Shown here one piece after another: positions 3,704-22,802 of a DNA stretch of 42,554 bases. Each line of letters opens with the position of its first letter. Position 1 is the first letter of the stretch. A program made the position numbers and the translations under genes. This DNA comes from a virus (Duplodnaviria > Heunggongvirae > Uroviricota > Caudoviricetes). The notes under the pieces are model-generated. The model searched no databases. It saw only the letters and a program-made list of their open reading frames with translations, and had not been told where the DNA came from. The stretch is taken from positions 1 through 42,554 of IMG/VR virus record IMGVR_UViG_2802429237_000001, one strand, 5' to 3'.

Positions 3704-6700
3704 TAAGCCAGATGCAGTGCTTCAAGACGACGAAGATCAAAGTCGTTTAATTCGTCGGTGTAACTTTCGGTAATCGGTGCTGGCCAGTTGTTTGTCTCCA
3801 GGGCTTCGTTTATCTGGCGTAGCGTCCGGCGATATTCCTGTCGACCAAGTTCCAGGAGTTCCTGCGAGGCTTCCACGACTGCCACCCAGTGATAGCCAGC
3901 ATCTTTGTTGACGAAGATCCAGAAAAATTTGTCCAGGTTTGCCACATCGCAATACATTGCGGCGCTGAGGTGATAATCACGCTCAATAATTTCACGGTGC
4001 AGGCGATCTTTAAGTCGTTCCTGTCGCACATAACCGAGGCTGACTGACTTCACGTCAGCGCAAATGCTTTCGTATGGCAGCCGGATTTCGATATCAGGAC
4101 GGACCCTGATTTCCAGCCCGGTTTCTTCATCAAACCCGAAATAGCTGATTTCAGATTTGCGATCCGGGTGGTTGAGTAGCCTTGCTGCATCGGTATTGTT
4201 TTGCAGTGCCGCGTGAATATTTTTTGCCTGTTCATACATATCCGGACTGATAAACGTTTTCCCGGCATTTTCTTCTTGCTGGCGTTTTTGCCAGTCCTCC
4301 AGTGTCACCAGTTCCGGGCGAATTTTCCGTGCGATTTCGGTTAATTGCTCTTTTGTGCCACTGATGTTGTAAGGCAAAGATTTAGCACGTTCTTTTTTTG
4401 CCAGTTCTGGGTCTACAGTTTCAATTTGATCCAGAAGCTGCTCCCGTGCTCCACTGGTTTTCAACAGAGGAGGGAGGCTTGCGTTGTATTCTTTAATACA
4501 GGCTTTCATTGCTGATGCTGTGTGTTTTTCCCCCTCAGGAATACGCCGAAATTCCACCGGAAGCGAACCGTAAAGGATGCCTGTTTCTTCGGCCCCGGCA
4601 CTTACAGACAGTGGCTGTATAAGAGTGCTGTTGTAGCTTTCGATCCACTCTTTCATCTGCTCTGGTGTCATCAGTGCTGGCAGACTGGCATTGTGTTTTT
4701 TAATGATGGCGATCAGTTCGCTAGAAGTAGTAACCACATATTCAGGAACCGGTACCGGAATGGCATATTCATCAGCGAATTTATCCGTTTCCAGAACATA
4801 GCTGTGAATGATCCGCCCACGCAGCAGTGCATCACTTTCCTCACTCGGAATAGTTCCGGCAATGTGCCGTCCGTGGTAATACATCAGGCTGATACGAGCA
4901 TCCTTCAGCATTGTGCTGCTTATTCCATTGGCAGAGTGATAAACCTCGTTTGGGAGGTTTTCATAGCGGCCTGGTTCGAAATATGATGGCCACATGATTT
5001 CAGTTGCTACAGGAGCTGACGCTTCACCAGTTTCATCACTGCAATTGTGATGCGAATCGCTGCCAGCGTTCTCCTTGTGCAGAGGTTCAGTGCCTTCCAT
5101 TTCCTCCGGATCTTTTTCCAGAGATTCATCCAGATTTTCTTCATTAAAGGTTTCCTGATACGTTGCGTCGCCCATTACCGCACCACAGTCGGGGCAGCTA
5201 TCCCCACCAGTCTGACCGCAGGCATTGCAGACTTTTTTCGGTTCCTGTTGCACTACTGGCTCAGGTTGTTTCACATCCGGGCTAGTTTTTTCAGTTTCTG
5301 GCGTGTTTTGTTCCGTTTCTGGCTGGTTCTGGTTCACAGAATCGCGAGTCTGGATCCCCTTAACCCATTTCGGATCATTCGGGTCGCTAATCCCTTCAAC
5401 AAATTCTCCACGCGAGGCAGCCAGCAATTTGTCTGCATCGACAGGATTTTTGGGCGGAATGTTTTTCCGGGCTTCATGGAGTTCTGCCCGCAGTTTCTGA
5501 TATTTCGCATCAACAGGGTTTACCTGTGACTGAGCATCCAGCGGCTGCGTGTCCTGATGATGTTCAGTTGCGTCCGGTTCCATTGTTTCAGCCGTTGCCT
5601 GTTCATCTGCCATTGCGCAAGATGGTTGCGGTTTTTCTTCATCATTCGGTTTTTCTTCTTCTGTTACACGCTGCGGCATCGGAGCAGAGGAGCGACCGCA
5701 GGCAATATCCACGATTTCCGGATCAGGGTTGGCATGATCGGTTTCAGTCAGTACTTTGTTCAGATATTCAGTGACGTGTGCGGGGATAACCTCGATACCA
5801 ATTGGTGCTTCTTTCACGGCCGCAACCACGATGGCACGGGAATAATCCAGCCCACCAGGCATGGCGATGAATTTGTCGCGGAAAACAGAAAAGGGTGGTT
5901 TATTTTCAGCGATAATTTCCTCGACACGTTTAGCGTGTGCTGGATGAAGGTTATAAATGTCCACGTCCATTGAACGGGCCAGTACGCCAGTGGCTACGTC
6001 GCGCGCCAGCGACGTCAGATCGTGAACGAAACCTTCGCCGCGGTCGGTAAGAATGCCGCCACCGGCATTTGCGCCCGACGGGGTGCGATTGATTTCAGAT
6101 ACGCAATTTCCTTTTGCCCACTCTTTTATCAGTAAGCTCTGATCCAGGTAATCGGTTTTCATCCAGGTGGATATGAACTTGTTGTATTCAGCCGGACTGA
6201 TGCGGCGAGTTTCTGCGTGAGTGAATGCCTTTTCCACGGAGCGCGCCAGTCTTTCCAGATGGTGGTTTGTCAGTTTATCCAGCTCAGGATGTGAGCGCAC
6301 CGCTGTAAGCATGCTCTGGAGGTTATGCTCCTCCATATCCATCTCCAGGCGGATCACGTCCTGGCGTTGTTCCGGTGTGGCGTGATGTTTGTATTTCCCA
6401 TTGAACTCCTGACCAAAGAAGTAGAGGTGCAGGAAACGATGAGCAAGACTGAGAGTGGCGACGGATACTTCGCAATCCTGGCAATCCCCGTGAGCGTCTG
6501 CCCGTGTGTTTTCTTCCTGGCCTCCCGCCGGTTCTTCGGTTTCCGGTGCATCCTCCTGATGGTGAACGTCGTCTGGCGCTGCTCCCGGTTTTAGTTCCCA
6601 GGTCATGGAGTCTTTGCTGAGTTGATAGCGTTCACTCCAGGTAAAATCGATCTCACCTTCAGGGGGAAGGTCATTAACGACAGGAAAATTCGTGGCAACA

Positions 6701-16482: not shown

Positions 16483-16772
16483 TGGTGGATTTACGTAAAG
16501 CGGCGCGGGGGCAGATGTGCACCGTCAGAATTCCTGGCTACTGCAATCACAATCCCGAAACTTCTGTGCTGGCGCATTACAGGCTGGCGGGGACGTGCGG
16601 AACAGCGACAAAACCACACGATATGCAGGCAGCGATTGCCTGTAGCTCATGCCACGATTTAATCGACGGGCGGGTAAAAACCAGCGATTACACCAAAGAA
16701 GAATTACGCCTGATGCATGCAGAAGGTGTTTTTCGCACACAAGAAATCTGGAGAAAGGAAGGTTATTTATGA
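16482..16772 (+). CDS. ybcO: YbcO-like putative nuclease (DUF1364-like, Cys-rich)
   Basis: 96 aa with cysteine pattern CTVRIPGYC...CGTATKP...ACSSCHDLIDGR resembling DLP12 YbcO as I recall it; same length. Confidence 0.7.
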   Translation: MVDLRKAARGQMCTVRIPGYCNHNPETSVLAHYRLAGTCGTATKPHDMQAAIACSSCHDLIDGRVKTSDYTKEELRLMHAEGVFRTQEIWRKEGYL

Positions 16773-17311
16773 TTTACCCAACAAATACAGGCAAAAGCGG
16801 GGAACACCTTCGTCTCACCACGCTGGAAAGTGTCTGGATTCAGGGAAAACTGCGCATGTGGGGGCGCTGGTCGTATATTGGCGGCGGTAAGACGGGAAAT
16901 ATGTTTAACCAGTTGCTGACCTCTAAAAAGCTGACAAAAACGGCAATTAACGAGGCGCTCCGGAGGATGAAAAAAGCAGGTCTGGACAAACCTGAACTTG
17001 AGGCTTTTTTGCGGGAGATGATCAACGGCAAGCAAAAAAGCTGGTTGGCGCATTGTACTGATGCAGAGGCGTTATGTATTGATAGAGTCATAAGTGAGGT
17101 GCTAGCAGAGCATCCTGGATTGATTAGTGTCCTCCGGCAACGGTATGAAGGACGGGGGATGACTAAGCGCAAAATGGCTGAATTGCTAAATGATGCACAT
17201 CCTGAGTGGTGTTTTAGCACATGCGAAAAGCGAATTGCTAATTGGTTGGCTGTTGCTGAGTATGCCCTATATATTCCCATGCGAGAATCATTTGCTCAAA
17301 AAATAGCTTGA
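16769..17311 (+). CDS. Putative late-gene antiterminator Q-like protein
   Basis: 180 aa from ATG at 16769 (ATGA overlap with ybcO stop); last gene of the early-right operon before a terminator and the lysis region. Family not confirmed. Confidence 0.45.
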   Translation: MIYPTNTGKSGEHLRLTTLESVWIQGKLRMWGRWSYIGGGKTGNMFNQLLTSKKLTKTAINEALRRMKKAGLDKPELEAFLREMINGKQKSWLAHCTDAEALCIDRVISEVLAEHPGLISVLRQRYEGRGMTKRKMAELLNDAHPEWCFSTCEKRIANWLAVAEYALYIPMRESFAQKIA

Positions 17312-17394
17312 TTTTTTACGCATAAACTGCTTCAATTCCGGTATGCTTCGCAAAGCTGTATCGCGAGGCGAACCAAGCGCATGAACTTTACCAG

Positions 17395-17423
17395 AACCCG
17401 CCATTGAGCGGGTTTTGTTGTTT
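17395..17423 (+). terminator. Intrinsic terminator downstream of the Q-like gene
   Basis: cccgcc-attga-gcggg followed by ttttgttgttt. Confidence 0.6.
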
Positions 17424-17436
17424 GAGGAGGGGGGGA

Positions 17437-17637
17437 ATGAATCAGACTGGTCAACCCAGCTATGCGCTTTTCGCTGGGAATGATAGCAACAACCTCAAAA
17501 CGTTTGTTCTTGAGGTTGATTGCTACCGCACTGAAGACGCGCTACTAGCAATGGAGAAAGCTATAAGCGAATTAAAAATCTGTCAGCGTCAGTTCGGCTA
17601 TGGAAATGATTCTGGTGTCAGAGCCATTATTCGATAA
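17437..17637 (+). CDS. Hypothetical small protein (66 aa)
   Basis: ATG at 17437 preceded by strong SD gaggaggggggg; 3' end overlaps the convergent minus-strand gene by 11 nt. Confidence 0.45.
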   Translation: MNQTGQPSYALFAGNDSNNLKTFVLEVDCYRTEDALLAMEKAISELKICQRQFGYGNDSGVRAIIR

Positions 17638-18175
17638 TTCTTTCTCCAATAATAACTGGCAATGGAATGAGTACCTCCCAGAATGGTTGATACCCTGCGT
17701 AAATCTGAGTTGTTTCTCCCTTCCAGTAAAGATCCAGCCTCTGAGATATTTCTACTGGGGAGCAGTTCAGATTTAACAAATTCATATCGCCTCTATGATA
17801 GTTCGACGATGAGTTGACTTGAAATATTGGGGTATCAAGTGGAAACTTTGAAAAACCTCTGAACCAGGCTGCTTCTTTTACAGACTCACATGCAAAAATT
17901 GATTGGAAACGCGATGGTTTTTCAGGGAAATGTGATTTTCTTCGTTCTTCCAGCAGTATTTCTATTATTGCTCCAAATCGTTCATCTGAGCTGACGAGGT
18001 TTATGTGGTAGTTGAAAAAAAGATTATTTGCATGCCTGGATACGCCGTCGGAAAACAATGAGCTCGTATGAGCCTGAAGTGGAACGATTGGGCAGTGCGG
18101 TTCAGTCAACTCAATTTTCATGCCTGACGTCAGTGTACGCAGCCTGTCAAGTGTGAAAAAAAGATGGTTCGCCAT
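17627..18175 (-). CDS. Hypothetical cargo protein (182 aa), opposite strand between Q-like gene and lysis genes
   Basis: ATG at 18175 with SD aggaaag; lower GC than flanks; no domain recognised. Confidence 0.6.
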   Translation of the reverse strand: MANHLFFTLDRLRTLTSGMKIELTEPHCPIVPLQAHTSSLFSDGVSRHANNLFFNYHINLVSSDERFGAIIEILLEERRKSHFPEKPSRFQSIFACESVKEAAWFRGFSKFPLDTPIFQVNSSSNYHRGDMNLLNLNCSPVEISQRLDLYWKGETTQIYAGYQPFWEVLIPLPVIIGERIIE

Positions 18176-18237: not shown

Positions 18238-18342
18238 TGTAGTGAATACAATGCTGTAAAAGCGGTAGAGCAGCCTCCGCATCTGGTAGCCTGACTGGAT
18301 GAAATAGTGCAGTGATATTCCTAATAGCCACGATTAATAGAC

Positions 18343-18371
18343 CTCGGCATTTGCCGGGGTTTTTTATTTAA
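18343..18371 (+). terminator. tR'-like intrinsic terminator upstream of the lysis cassette
   Basis: cucggca-uu-ugccggg (one G-U pair) followed by guuuuuuauuu. Confidence 0.5.
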
Positions 18372-19681: not shown

Positions 19682-19844
19682 AACACCCCAGCCAGATTTA
19701 CCCGACCCGTTTACGTGGGGAGCCAGCATTAACCTGAATGTTGCGTTGTTGTCAGCGTTAGCACAGTGCAACAGGGATAAGGCTGATATCAGGACTTTTG
19801 AGAAAAATAGGGCAGCACAAACCAATGGCACGATTAAACGTTGA
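19566..19844 (+). CDS. Rz1: Rz1-like o-spanin lipoprotein, overlapping Rz in +1 frame
   Basis: Signal peptide MMIVLFVSFLLAQLSGC with lipobox LSGC; proline-rich mature part; starts inside Rz and extends 163 nt beyond it. Confidence 0.6.
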   Translation: MMIVLFVSFLLAQLSGCTNTRTVYVSVPVVPLPASLTDETPQPDLPDPFTWGASINLNVALLSALAQCNRDKADIRTFEKNRAAQTNGTIKR

Positions 19845-20010
19845 AGTTATCCCACCAGACAGCGAAACGATGAACGGGATTTTTGCAGAGATTGAACGTA
19901 AATATGCGCATCAGCCGATGACGCCAAAAGTTATCGATGAAATGCAACGCGAAGCGGCGCGCCTTGTACGGCGAGCGACAAACACGAAGGTTACGTTCGT
20001 TCGGGACTGA
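19825..20010 (+). CDS. Hypothetical small protein (61 aa)
   Basis: ATG at 19825 (track start 19798 is TTG); overlaps the Rz1 3' end; weak SD; followed by a perfect 10-bp hairpin. Confidence 0.3.
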   Translation: MARLNVEVIPPDSETMNGIFAEIERKYAHQPMTPKVIDEMQREAARLVRRATNTKVTFVRD

Positions 20011-20147
20011 CATTACAGAAGCTCCTTTGATAAGGAGCTTCGATAATGTCACTAAGAGGAAAAATTCATGGCAAAACCGGACTGGGAGGCCATCGAATCG
20101 GTGCCCCGGGCCAGATTGCTCTCTCCGTTAAATCAGAACTCAAAATC

Positions 20148-20609
20148 CTATCCGTGGAAAATATTTGCATCCAAATCATCTATGAGATTAGACCTAACTG
20201 ATTCATAATTTTTCCCATATGCGGCCCCTTTACCTGAATGGGTTACATGCCCAATAGGACCGTACAGAAGTATAGAGATTGTGAATGATATTTCATCAGA
20301 AATGCCGCCTATCTTTTGAAACCAAAGTTCCGGGTTACGATTCCGGTCGGTTACAACGTCAAATACAAGCGCGATAAGATCTGGGAGATAGTACATGTTA
20401 AATCCGCCATTTGGGGTCAACTCGAGATTCAACAGGTCTTTGATGGAGGGATAATTGCTTACATCATCCTGAATGCCATTCTTAAGAGCTGTAAACACAA
20501 AGTTCAGCATTTCAGCAACTTTATCTTTGTTTGGTTCTACTCCATTTCTGAAGGACCGCTCTCCAGATTCATATTTTTCAACACAAAAATCTAATAAATT
20601 CATTATCAT
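20148..20609 (-). CDS. Hypothetical cargo protein (about 151 aa) at the lambda bor position
   Basis: Opposite-strand AT-rich ORF between lysis cassette and terminase; probable start ATG at 20603; its RBS overlaps the terS RBS on the other strand; no domain recognised. Confidence 0.6.
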   Translation of the reverse strand: MIMNLLDFCVEKYESGERSFRNGVEPNKDKVAEMLNFVFTALKNGIQDDVSNYPSIKDLLNLELTPNGGFNMYYLPDLIALVFDVVTDRNRNPELWFQKIGGISDEISFTISILLYGPIGHVTHSGKGAAYGKNYESVRSNLIDDLDANIFHG

Positions 20610-20625
20610 TCCCCGAGGTAACTAA

Positions 20626-21177
20626 ATGGCGCTCACCGACAAACAAGAGATGTTCTGTCGCGAGTACCTCATCGATTTAAACGCCACGCAAGCGGCTATT
20701 CGGGCGGGGTACAGCGCTAAGACAGCTAACCGTACCGCATCCGAAAACCTGTCAAAACCTGACATCAAGTTAAGAATCGCCGAACTGAAAGCGCAACGCA
20801 ATGATCTTGTTGGTATTAATGCAGAATATGTACTTAATCGCCTTATTGAAATCGACCAGATGGATGTGCTTGACATTCTCCTGCAAAACGGTGAGCTAAA
20901 ACCCATTAAAGACTGGCCTAAGGTATGGCGCACAACGCTATCAGGAATGGATGTCGTGGAGATGGTATCCGCAGATAGCGCCGCACTTCTGAAGAAAATC
21001 AAATGGCCTGATAAGGTTAAAAACCTTGAGTTGCTTGGGCGCCATGTTTCTGTTCAGGCGTTTAAAGACAACGTCAAAAATGAAGTGACTGGCGCTGATG
21101 GAGGTCCAGTCAGAACAGAAATTACCAACTTAACGCCGGAGCAGGTTGCAGAGGCGTATAGAAAAATGATGGGCTAA
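20626..21177 (+). CDS. Terminase small subunit
   Basis: 183 aa; N-terminus [30 protein letters not shown] typical of small terminase subunits; directly precedes the large subunit. Confidence 0.8.
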
Positions 21178-21179
21178 GT

Positions 21180-22802
21180 ATGCCGTTACCATTCCCCTTC
21201 GATTTTAAGCATCCTGATTACCAGATGGTTTTTGAATGGCGGATGGAACGCTTACAGCGCATTCGCCAGAACCCTGAAATATTGCCTGCACTAAAACAGT
21301 TTTACCGAACCAATCCGGCTCAGTTCATCATCGACTGGGGCATGACAACGGACCCGCGTAATATTGATTATGGCCTGCCGGTGACCATTCCGTTTTTACT
21401 CTTCCCTAAGCAGGAGGAGTGGATCCACTGGATTATGGAACGCTGGGGCAATCGGGAGAATGGTATTACCGAAAAATCCCGTGAAATGGGGCTCAGTTGG
21501 ACCGCGATCGGACTGGCATGCTCGCTTTGTCTCTTCAACAAAGAAATGGTTATCGGTTTCGGCTCCCGTAAAGAGGAATACGTCGACAGCACTGGTGACC
21601 CGAAAGCATTGTTCTGGAAGGCACGCAAGTTCGTGGAAACGCTACCTGTAGAGTTTCGCGGTTCGTGGAGTGAGAAGAAGCACGCGCCATATATGCGTGT
21701 TGAGTTTCCTGAAACTGGTGCCGTTATCAAAGGCGAGGCTGGCGATAATATTGGTCGTGGTGACCGTACCACGCTTTATCTGGTTGATGAGGCTGCATTC
21801 CTTCAGCGTCCTCTGCTGATTGATGCGGCGTTGTCACAAACGACGCGTTGCCGTATCGACCTGAGTTCAGTTAACGGCATGGCTAACCCGTTCGCTCAGA
21901 AGCGTCATGGCGGGAAGATACCGGTATTCACATTCCACTGGCGGGATGATCCTCGCAAGGATGAAGAGTGGTATCGCAGGGAATGCGAGAAAATCGATAA
22001 TCCGGTGGTGGTGGCACAGGAACTTGATCTGAACTACAGCGCATCAGCGGAAGGCGTTCTGATTCCATCCGAATGGGTACAGGCTGCCGTTGATGCGCAT
22101 ATCAAACTGGGTATCCAGCCAACAGGCAAACGACTTGGCGCGATGGATGTCGCCGACGAAGGCAGGGACAAAAATGCCTTTTCCACCCGTCATGGCTTCC
22201 TCCTGGAAAATGTGCGGGAATGGTCCGGTGTGGGCAGCGACATTTATCAGTCCGTCGAGAAGGTTTTCGGCTTTTGCGAACAGGACAACCTCGAAGAGTT
22301 TCGCTTTGACGAGGACGGGCTGGGCGCTGGCGTTCGCGGCGATGCACGCGCTATCAACGAACTGCGTAACGCTGCGCGTCGACCGTCAATACTTGCCACA
22401 CCGTTTCGAGGTAGTGGCGCGGTATTTGATCCGGATGATGAAGCTGTTCGCGGGGACAACGGGCAAGCCGCACGTCTGAACAAGGACTTCTTCGCTAACG
22501 CCAAAGCCCAGAGCTGGTGGCGGTTACGTAAACTTTTTCAGAATACCTGGCGCGCCGTGGTTGAAGGTATGGCTTACAACTCGGACGAAATCATCTCAAT
22601 CAGCAGTAGCATGGCACTCAAAGATAAACTCATCATCGAGCTTTCGCAGCCGACCTATTCCATTAATGGTGTGGGAAAAATCGTTATTGATAAACAGCCT
22701 GATGGAACCCGATCGCCAAACCTTGCCGACTCGGTGATGATCAACTATGCCCCAATGAATTCAGCCCTGAACATCTGGGAGCTGCTAGGGAGACAGGCCT
22801 GA
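21180..22802 (+). CDS. Terminase large subunit
   Basis: 540 aa; position between terS and portal; nuclease-like acidic segments ([11 protein letters not shown]). Confidence 0.85.

Follow-up and report, generated by a model that had tools for sequence, protein, structure and literature searches.

In the 42,554-nucleotide stretch of Caudoviricetes DNA that makes up positions 1 to 42,554 of IMG/VR virus record IMGVR_UViG_2802429237_000001 (hereafter the window), a small gene on the minus strand lies between the lysis genes and the packaging genes and is oriented head-to-head with the terminase gene terS. This gene, referred to here as the cargo gene, and the slot that it occupies are the subject of the present analysis. 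The locus comprises the following features, with lengths in nucleotides (nt), base pairs (bp) and amino acids (aa):

20148..20603, minus strand: cargo gene, stop codon at 20148-20150, encoding a soluble, mildly acidic protein of 151 aa that is predicted to be all-alpha and belongs to an unnamed orphan family
20604..20625, no strand: divergent intergenic region of 22 bp with abutting back-to-back Shine-Dalgarno (SD) sites, as read from the sequence
20626..21177, plus strand: terS of the Terminase_2 family (Pfam PF03592, E=6.8e-40)
20626-20720, plus strand: first ~95 nt of terS, nearly invariant across relatives; right border of the variable slot

The minus-strand open reading frame (ORF) at the locus in the ORF listing is 20148..20609 and encodes 153 aa. 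An N-terminus of the form MNLLD/MKLL is conserved in all homologues of the alignment and points to the ATG at 20603, which is equivalent in position to the start assigned by the Prokaryotic Genome Annotation Pipeline (PGAP) to WP_105289058.1 of E. coli TB06053, and the upstream in-frame ATG at 20609 is missing from the Klebsiella homologues. The conserved MNLLD N-terminus and the PGAP call thus identify ATG 20603 as the true start, in agreement with an earlier note on this DNA, which had described a minus-strand protein of ~151 aa starting at this ATG, about 20 bp from the divergent terS start; 22 bp were measured between this ATG and that of terS at 20626. The SD of the cargo gene (GGGGA on the minus strand; tcccc on the plus strand, 20610-20614) and that of terS (GAGGT, plus strand, 20615-20619) are each located 6 nt from their ATG. 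Both SDs had been placed in one and the same segment on opposite strands: they are indeed arranged back-to-back, but the two pentamers abut rather than overlap. The description of the gene as AT-rich and located, in opposite orientation, at the position of bor in phage lambda also holds. It lies on the minus strand between lysis and terminase genes, and the guanine-cytosine (GC) content of its ORF is 39.0%, compared with 48.4% for the window (7.6th percentile of equal-sized windows), while GC at third codon positions amounts to 0.37 in the cargo gene and 0.50 in terS. The ratio of nonsynonymous to synonymous substitution (dN/dS), calculated for pairs with unsaturated dS, is 0.37 for the window and Klebsiella locus L004 and 0.25 for loci L016 and L015. 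Because homologues occur in several genera and dN/dS is in the range of 0.25-0.37, the ORF is more than a chance reading frame; it is a genuine protein-coding gene under purifying selection.

We surveyed 80 IMG/VR loci that encode close relatives of the window terS and examined the DNA upstream; counts of slot occupancy refer to the 64 loci with a canonical terS ATG and sufficient upstream sequence and to ORFs of at least 55 aa. At 63 of these 64 loci, an opposite-strand ORF begins at most 35 nt from the terS ATG. Clustering divides them into 18 groups whose mutual similarity is undetectable, and the cassette type of the window is found at one of the 80 loci (L027). Slot cassettes average 41% GC compared with 48% for terS, and similarity between cassette types breaks off exactly at the terS ATG. 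Every cassette carries its own spacer of 15-30 bp, in which a CAT, a reverse-complement SD (CTCC/TCCC), a forward SD (AGG/GAGG) and the ATG follow each other at similar distances, CAT-(4-8 nt)-CTCC/TCCC-AGG/GAGG-(5-8 nt)-ATG. This layout recurs with unrelated cassettes, and back-to-back ribosome-binding sites (RBSs) are thus a general design of the slot. The cassette of the window is very compact and consists of the ORF, the 22-bp leader and a few tens of bases on the 3' side. On the other side of the border, the near-invariance of the first ~95 nt of terS extends to third codon positions, with a synonymous identity of 0.83-0.96 in codons 1-30 compared with 0.5-0.7 in later codons. Such invariance would be expected of a recombination anchor, of an embedded regulatory signal or of a combination of the two.

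Complete E. coli genomes provide the same picture. The terS platform is present in 203 of 5426 genomes and the left flank of the slot (19840-20101) in 209, with homology to 19840-20147 ending at ~20101 in most of them. The cassette of the window is found in six of the 5426 genomes, always on the chromosome, and hence in six of the 203 with the same terS; at the DNA level, it is absent from deposited phages and, according to tblastn, from plasmids. In E. coli B REL606, identical flanks enclose an unrelated opposite-strand gene that encodes 182 aa (WP_000762846.1) and starts 19 bp from the terS ATG. The cargo gene combines foreign composition, insertion between conserved phage genes and presence or absence among relatives, the features by which morons are recognized, and is very probably a swappable single-gene cassette in a hotspot that abuts terS in lambdoid prophages.

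Four of the slot occupants have some identity: Tai, DUF2441, DUF2158 and a CxxCxxCC protein. The cassette of locus L065 (174 aa) is homologous to the anti-phage protein TaiEcA of phage phi80 (30% identity, E = 9e-23), the L082 cassette (190 aa) clusters with this Tai-type cassette, and a near-identical Tai gene is located 1.2 kb from the cargo homologue of L016. The cargo protein itself is not a Tai homologue, as a BLASTP comparison with phi80 orf63 gives E = 22 and hhalign with a 30-sequence profile a probability of 0.8%. DUF2441 belongs to the Pfam ADP-ribosyltransferase clan (PMC7955679) and is also encoded by a second opposite-strand cargo gene of the window:

17627-18175, minus strand: DUF2441 gene (phrog_5663), 182 aa, 41% GC, between the Q antiterminator/terminator and the holin gene

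At L045, a DUF2441 protein with 36% identity to the product of 17627-18175 occupies the terS slot. Hence, cassettes appear to move between cargo slots. In E. coli TB06053, a tRNA-Asn and a tRNA-Thr gene replace the DUF2441 gene in the interval between Q and holin. The REL606 cassette WP_000762846.1, which corresponds to L018 3304-3852 (minus strand), replaces the cargo gene in E. coli B and BL21-type strains; its type ranks third in frequency among the cassettes of the IMG/VR sample (7/80). It shows no homology to the cargo protein and no match in Pfam and PADLOC, and a R...S/T...E-like pattern (LYRGENK, CWTTDIS, GENEFTV) recalls ADP-ribosyltransferases.

For transcription of the slot and its surroundings, two further features are relevant:

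16649..17311, plus strand: Q-type antiterminator (Pfam DUF1133 / Phage_antitermQ)
17392-17417 and 18339-18362, plus strand: terminator-like hairpins downstream of Q, from the terminator scan

The order on the plus strand is Q, the two terminators, holin, endolysin, spanins, a small ORF (19798-20010) and then terS. As terS is preceded on its own strand by Q, both terminators and the lysis cassette, it is part of the Q-dependent late operon, the promoter of which is ~3 kb upstream. The claim of the earlier note that the terS promoter must lie inside the cargo gene therefore fails. Late transcripts of this operon run antisense to the entire cargo gene, and the promoter of the cargo gene would have to sit within or beyond terS; we infer that the gene is expressed leftward from the prophage. 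The reading that we favour, with about an even chance of being correct, is that the cargo gene is an accessory gene expressed in the lysogen, probably anti-phage, and silenced by late antisense transcription. A weak promoter, located within the invariant 5' part of terS or beyond it, would drive leftward transcription and lead to expression in the lysogen. During lytic growth, Q-dependent late transcription would cross the gene in antisense and damp it in the manner of a "noncontiguous operon". The product would most likely guard the lysogen against other phages and, because an enzymatic signature is lacking, would probably act by binding a phage or host protein rather than by catalysis. For anti-phage defence as the function, taken on its own, the chance is even at best.

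The position next to terS could also reflect a link to packaging. Homologues of the cargo protein are found in Klebsiella, Rahnella, Rouxiella, a Pseudomonas phage and others; the only phage match at the protein level is Pseudomonas phage PseuP_222 with 25% identity. In every enterobacterial prophage context examined, the homologue is divergent from terS, and the gap to the terS start measures 22 bp in E. coli and Klebsiella, 23 bp in L016 (whose protein is just 38% identical), 37 bp in Rahnella and 78 bp in Rouxiella. The 37-bp spacer of the Rahnella loci L003 and L012 holds a direct duplication, ATTTCCTCACCTT ATTTCCTCACCTT; compared with the REL606-type spacer AATTTCCTCAGGTATATCA, the reverse-complement SD region is thereby doubled. 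A head-to-head arrangement in nearly all contexts would suit a regulator or accessory protein of the phage's own terminase, or a protein that, like TerI, inhibits foreign terminases; in Listeria, TerI and the unrelated proteins that share its slot all act through TerS to block packaging. However, the cargo proteins of Rouxiella (L008) and L015 are 98% identical to each other, and while the former abuts a terS of ~200 aa starting with 'MTKPDWEAIE', the latter is located near a Terminase_2 terS of an unrelated type. Hence, the position is conserved and not the protein partner, and co-evolution of the cargo gene with one type of terS is ruled out. Moreover, the position is common to 18 unrelated proteins, one or two small ORFs separate the homologue from terS in PseuP_222, L014 and L015, a distant member in a Castellaniella prophage abuts lysis genes instead, and the slot protein Tai acts on tail assembly and not on packaging (PMC11364771). 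The unrelated terS neighbors, the diversity of slot proteins, the action of Tai on tails and the contexts in L014, L015 and Castellaniella render a role as accessory of the own terminase unlikely, and the packaging-linked reading as a whole is very unlikely. If the product inhibited foreign terminases, this would fall under the favoured reading, in which it protects the lysogen.

The cargo protein contains no hydrophobic segment (maximum Kyte-Doolittle 19-mer 1.17), and its N-terminus, MNLLDFCVEKYESGER, has neither a hydrophobic leader nor a signal peptide or lipobox as in Bor. The absence of hydrophobic segments suggests that it is cytoplasmic, as the earlier note had proposed from the lack of a signal peptide. 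Searches of Pfam, PHROGs, PADLOC and NCBIfam with the cargo protein gave no significant match, and in PADLOC-DB 2.0 not a single family was matched even at E <= 1. When 30 family members were compared with Pfam and PHROGs one by one, only noise in single members was obtained, with a best PHROG value of E = 0.013 for one member. Homology to phage structural or packaging proteins, which would have spoken against the class of function proposed earlier, was found neither for the target nor for the 30-member family in PHROGs, Pfam and BFVD.

A word-indexed search of 5.8 billion proteins returned seven relatives, and an exhaustive HMMER search of 1.84 billion cluster representatives 29 at E <= 1e-3 and 16 at E <= 1e-10, nearly all of which are 139-157 aa in length. 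Judged from these searches, the family is small and coherent, with a core motif F-x6-D-x2-A-L-V/I-F-D/E-V-x-T/V-D/E-x-N-x-N-P-x-L-W. Structure prediction, proposed in the earlier note as a check, yields a confident all-helical model (AlphaFold2 with a 7-sequence alignment; predicted local distance difference test score 87.7, predicted template modeling score 0.86), for which Foldseek detects no relative at E <= 0.001 in the PDB and in the viral predicted structures of BFVD. A search of PDB sequences with the family profile reveals no solved relative (best E = 0.14), and no catalytic signature is evident in the protein. Long proteins with 'APEGW...YR..NPEWF' repeats that resemble helix-turn-helix (HTH) motifs match with HMMER E-values of 1e-4 to 1e-6, but were judged to be unreliable because the E-values are inflated by summed repeats, only ~25-50 residues are covered and the spacing differs by 4 residues. 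Four such metagenomic proteins (P0027, P0030, P0031 and P0032; 780-1485 aa) have an odd architecture of many HTH-like repeats of ~70 aa with the unit 'APEGWMTN..LA..LGV...TI..IA..YR..NPEWF..Y....EHYAPELV' and match the cargo protein weakly via the 'NPE(L)WF' segment; one of them ends in a C-terminal SNF2 helicase domain.

A small, soluble and acidic orphan protein (pI 4.7, net charge -8) with a novel fold displays the typical profile of an anti-defence protein. The gene might therefore serve counter-defence or host takeover, being expressed early or constitutively in infection and neutralizing a host immune or stress system rather than protecting the lysogen. Its fast divergence relative to the adjacent terS, with 38% compared with 70% identity in L016, is in line with such a role, and diversity hotspots of phages hold defence as well as anti-defence genes (bioRxiv 10.1101/2024.10.15.618418). 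Yet, the gene is positioned in antisense within the late operon, where strong late transcription would work against it precisely at the time at which a lytic function is required. Furthermore, the validated slot occupant Tai is a defence protein expressed in the lysogen, and the charge of the cargo protein is far from that of DNA mimics. Overall, we regard counter-defence as unlikely.

Several observations weigh against the favoured reading of a defence gene expressed in the lysogen. On the minus strand at 20560-21300, neither the promoter scan nor a position weight matrix (PWM) scan finds a sigma-70 promoter above background, although consensus scans of this kind can miss weak or activator-dependent promoters. 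The best minus-strand PWM scores are 7-8 (TTTCAA-17-TATTCT at 20851-20823 and TTGACA-15-TACGGT at 20755-20729), and scores of this height are reached ~4 times per kb on each strand of the window. No intrinsic terminator is called on the 3' side of the cargo gene, the nearest structure being a U-less hairpin of ~19 pairs at 20009-20050, ~100 nt downstream. As PADLOC and all other libraries are silent, the case for defence is purely one of guilt by position, and most of the other slot occupants are likewise unannotated and uncharacterized. The earlier assignment to a lysogenic-conversion, defence or anti-defence class is accordingly backed by the slot context and by the Tai homologue in the slot, but not by any match in PADLOC, where the check for a defence match came out negative. 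Finally, a distant Aeromonas member is found in a non-phage chromosomal locus behind a soluble histidine kinase, and the family is thus not strictly phage-bound. In this Aeromonas hydrophila locus (JACSWL010000005.1, L100 4549-6420), the family member P0037 (139 aa) directly follows an uncharacterized protein of 214 aa and a soluble histidine-kinase-like protein of 253 aa; all three genes are on one strand and may form a three-gene unit.

The Aeromonas locus, together with a relative position and orientation as in bor, would also be compatible with lysogenic conversion unrelated to phages, for example in stress tolerance, signaling or colonization, as bor represents in lambda. The cargo protein has no signal peptide or lipobox, however, unlike Bor, and its gene is rare and patchy (6/5426 E. 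coli genomes). It also alternates with many unrelated genes, including one known defence, which is the pattern of arms-race cargo and not of a host-adaptive trait. A conversion function of this kind is therefore distinctly unlikely. Returning to an anti-phage gene expressed in the lysogen, a more far-reaching version would hold that the cargo protein represents a new all-alpha-fold family of single-gene anti-phage or anti-defence proteins and that the terS slot is a plug-in expression platform with about twenty more immunity genes. The possible parts of such a platform would be the invariant 5' end of terS, serving as anchor and perhaps as antisense promoter, the back-to-back RBSs and silencing by late antisense transcription. 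We put this version forward tentatively and lean toward doubt.

The left side of the slot comprises three additional features:

19798..20010, plus strand: small late-operon ORF (phrog_12811, PHROG match 2.1e-39); WP_000113283.1 is its 61-aa form
20009..20050, no strand: long inverted repeat with the core GAAGCTCCTT-tgat-AAGGAGCTTC, ~19 pairs
20068..20125, plus strand: relic 5' end of a different terS type (MAKPDWEAIESVPRARLL...), SD AAGAGG at 20054-20059; left border of the slot

In protein as well as DNA sequence, the relic matches the start of the ~200-aa terS found in L008, L017 and Pseudomonas phage PseuP_222, and E. coli B REL606 has it as well. Apparently, an earlier terS left this stump behind when the present cassette and the Terminase_2 packaging module took its place. 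The inverted repeat begins where the small late ORF stops, lacks a U-tract on both strands and was not called an intrinsic terminator in the terminator scan; the RNA fold of the minus strand at 19990-20160 has a z-score of -3.3. Along with the left flank, the repeat is conserved in many E. coli prophages; possible roles are in RNA processing, in RNA stability or in pausing between convergent transcripts. WP_000113283.1 adjoins the target cassette in TB06053 and the unrelated 182-aa cassette in REL606. The small late ORF is ruled out as a cognate antidote, since the identical protein accompanies different cassettes, and the comparison of TB06053 with REL606 reveals no cassette-specific second gene beside the cargo gene.

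On the right side, two observations concern terS itself. Locus L009 (IMGVR_UViG_2690315994_000029) contains two copies of terS (2263-2811 and 3719-4267), ~0.9 kb apart and both 99% identical to that of the window, which are the result of either a tandem duplication or a misassembly. In addition, ~250 nt of the terS 5' part (window ~20624-20870) share ~76% identity with a stretch that is unannotated in P22 (NC_002371.2 40741-40984) and P22-like phages, whereas the BTP1 annotation of this stretch is pid (Pid regulatory protein). These phages seem to carry a piece of terS at another site in their genomes.

Cargo genes on the opposite strand in the lysis-packaging gap are already known (bor, morons, Tai), while the protein family described here is new and unannotated, and the findings on the slot extend current understanding rather than overturn it. 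In practical terms, the slot can be recognized by an opposite-strand ORF that starts 15-30 bp before the ATG of a conserved Terminase_2 terS. It thereby offers a handle for gene finding: its occupants include at least 18 unrelated small proteins, hardly any of them annotated, in addition to one proven defence family, and cargo of prophage hotspots is a productive source of new immune and counter-immune mechanisms. The cargo gene is among the rarest occupants; if it confers immunity, it would represent a new family and probably a new mechanism. Beyond the single gene, the paired RBSs and the invariant 5' end of terS provide a model of how cargo might be expressed in the lysogen, switched off in the lytic cycle and exchanged between phages.

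The classical lambdoid morons, lambda bor among them, are AT-rich genes of foreign composition on the opposite strand, with the lysis cassette on one side and the packaging genes on the other. The cargo gene resembles them in AT-richness, opposite orientation, location in the lysis-packaging gap and presumed expression from the prophage. It differs in that Bor is a lipoprotein with a signal sequence, whereas the cargo protein appears cytoplasmic and has no sequence relationship to it, and in that classical morons have their own promoter and terminator, neither of which was detected at the cargo gene. A close parallel in layout is TaiEcA of phi80, an anti-phage protein whose gene precedes the packaging module and runs against the Q-dependent late operon (He et al., Nat Commun 2024, PMC11364771). 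TaiEcA is made in the lysogen and its level falls upon Q expression (PMC11364771). Like TaiEcA/AtiEcA, the cargo gene is a single small opposite-strand gene upstream of a lambdoid packaging module that interrupts a Q-dependent late operon, and Tai homologues are found in the identical head-to-head terS slot (L065) and near a cargo homologue (L016). The two proteins differ in length (204 aa for TaiEcA, 151 aa for the cargo protein) and share no sequence or profile similarity, and the cargo gene has no cassette-specific counter-defence gene like atiEcA.

Two systems of Listeria and S. aureus are comparable in their organization. In the Listeria TERi system (TerI, TerI-80, TerI-180), unrelated small opposite-strand genes alternate behind a conserved promoter (bioRxiv 10.1101/2025.02.27.640495). 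A conserved expression site in a prophage lytic module, with a fixed flank and varying opposite-strand cargo, is common to TERi and the terS slot. However, TERi belongs to a different host clade and is located in the early module, whereas the slot of the window is at terS, and the TERi promoter is mapped and conserved, while none above background was found for the cargo gene. In S. aureus, the antisense "noncontiguous operon" layout of Tha/Ith couples immunity to the phage life cycle. The hotspots of P2 and P4, finally, have a fixed position with conserved phage flanks and many alternative cargo genes, most of which are uncharacterized (Rousset et al., Cell Host Microbe 2022, PMC9122126). The terS slot shares with them the fixed, flanked position for alternative and mostly uncharacterized cargo. 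It is found in another phage family and at another position, holds single genes of 60-192 aa instead of multi-gene systems and, unlike the P2/P4 hotspots, has a common design of back-to-back RBSs against terS.

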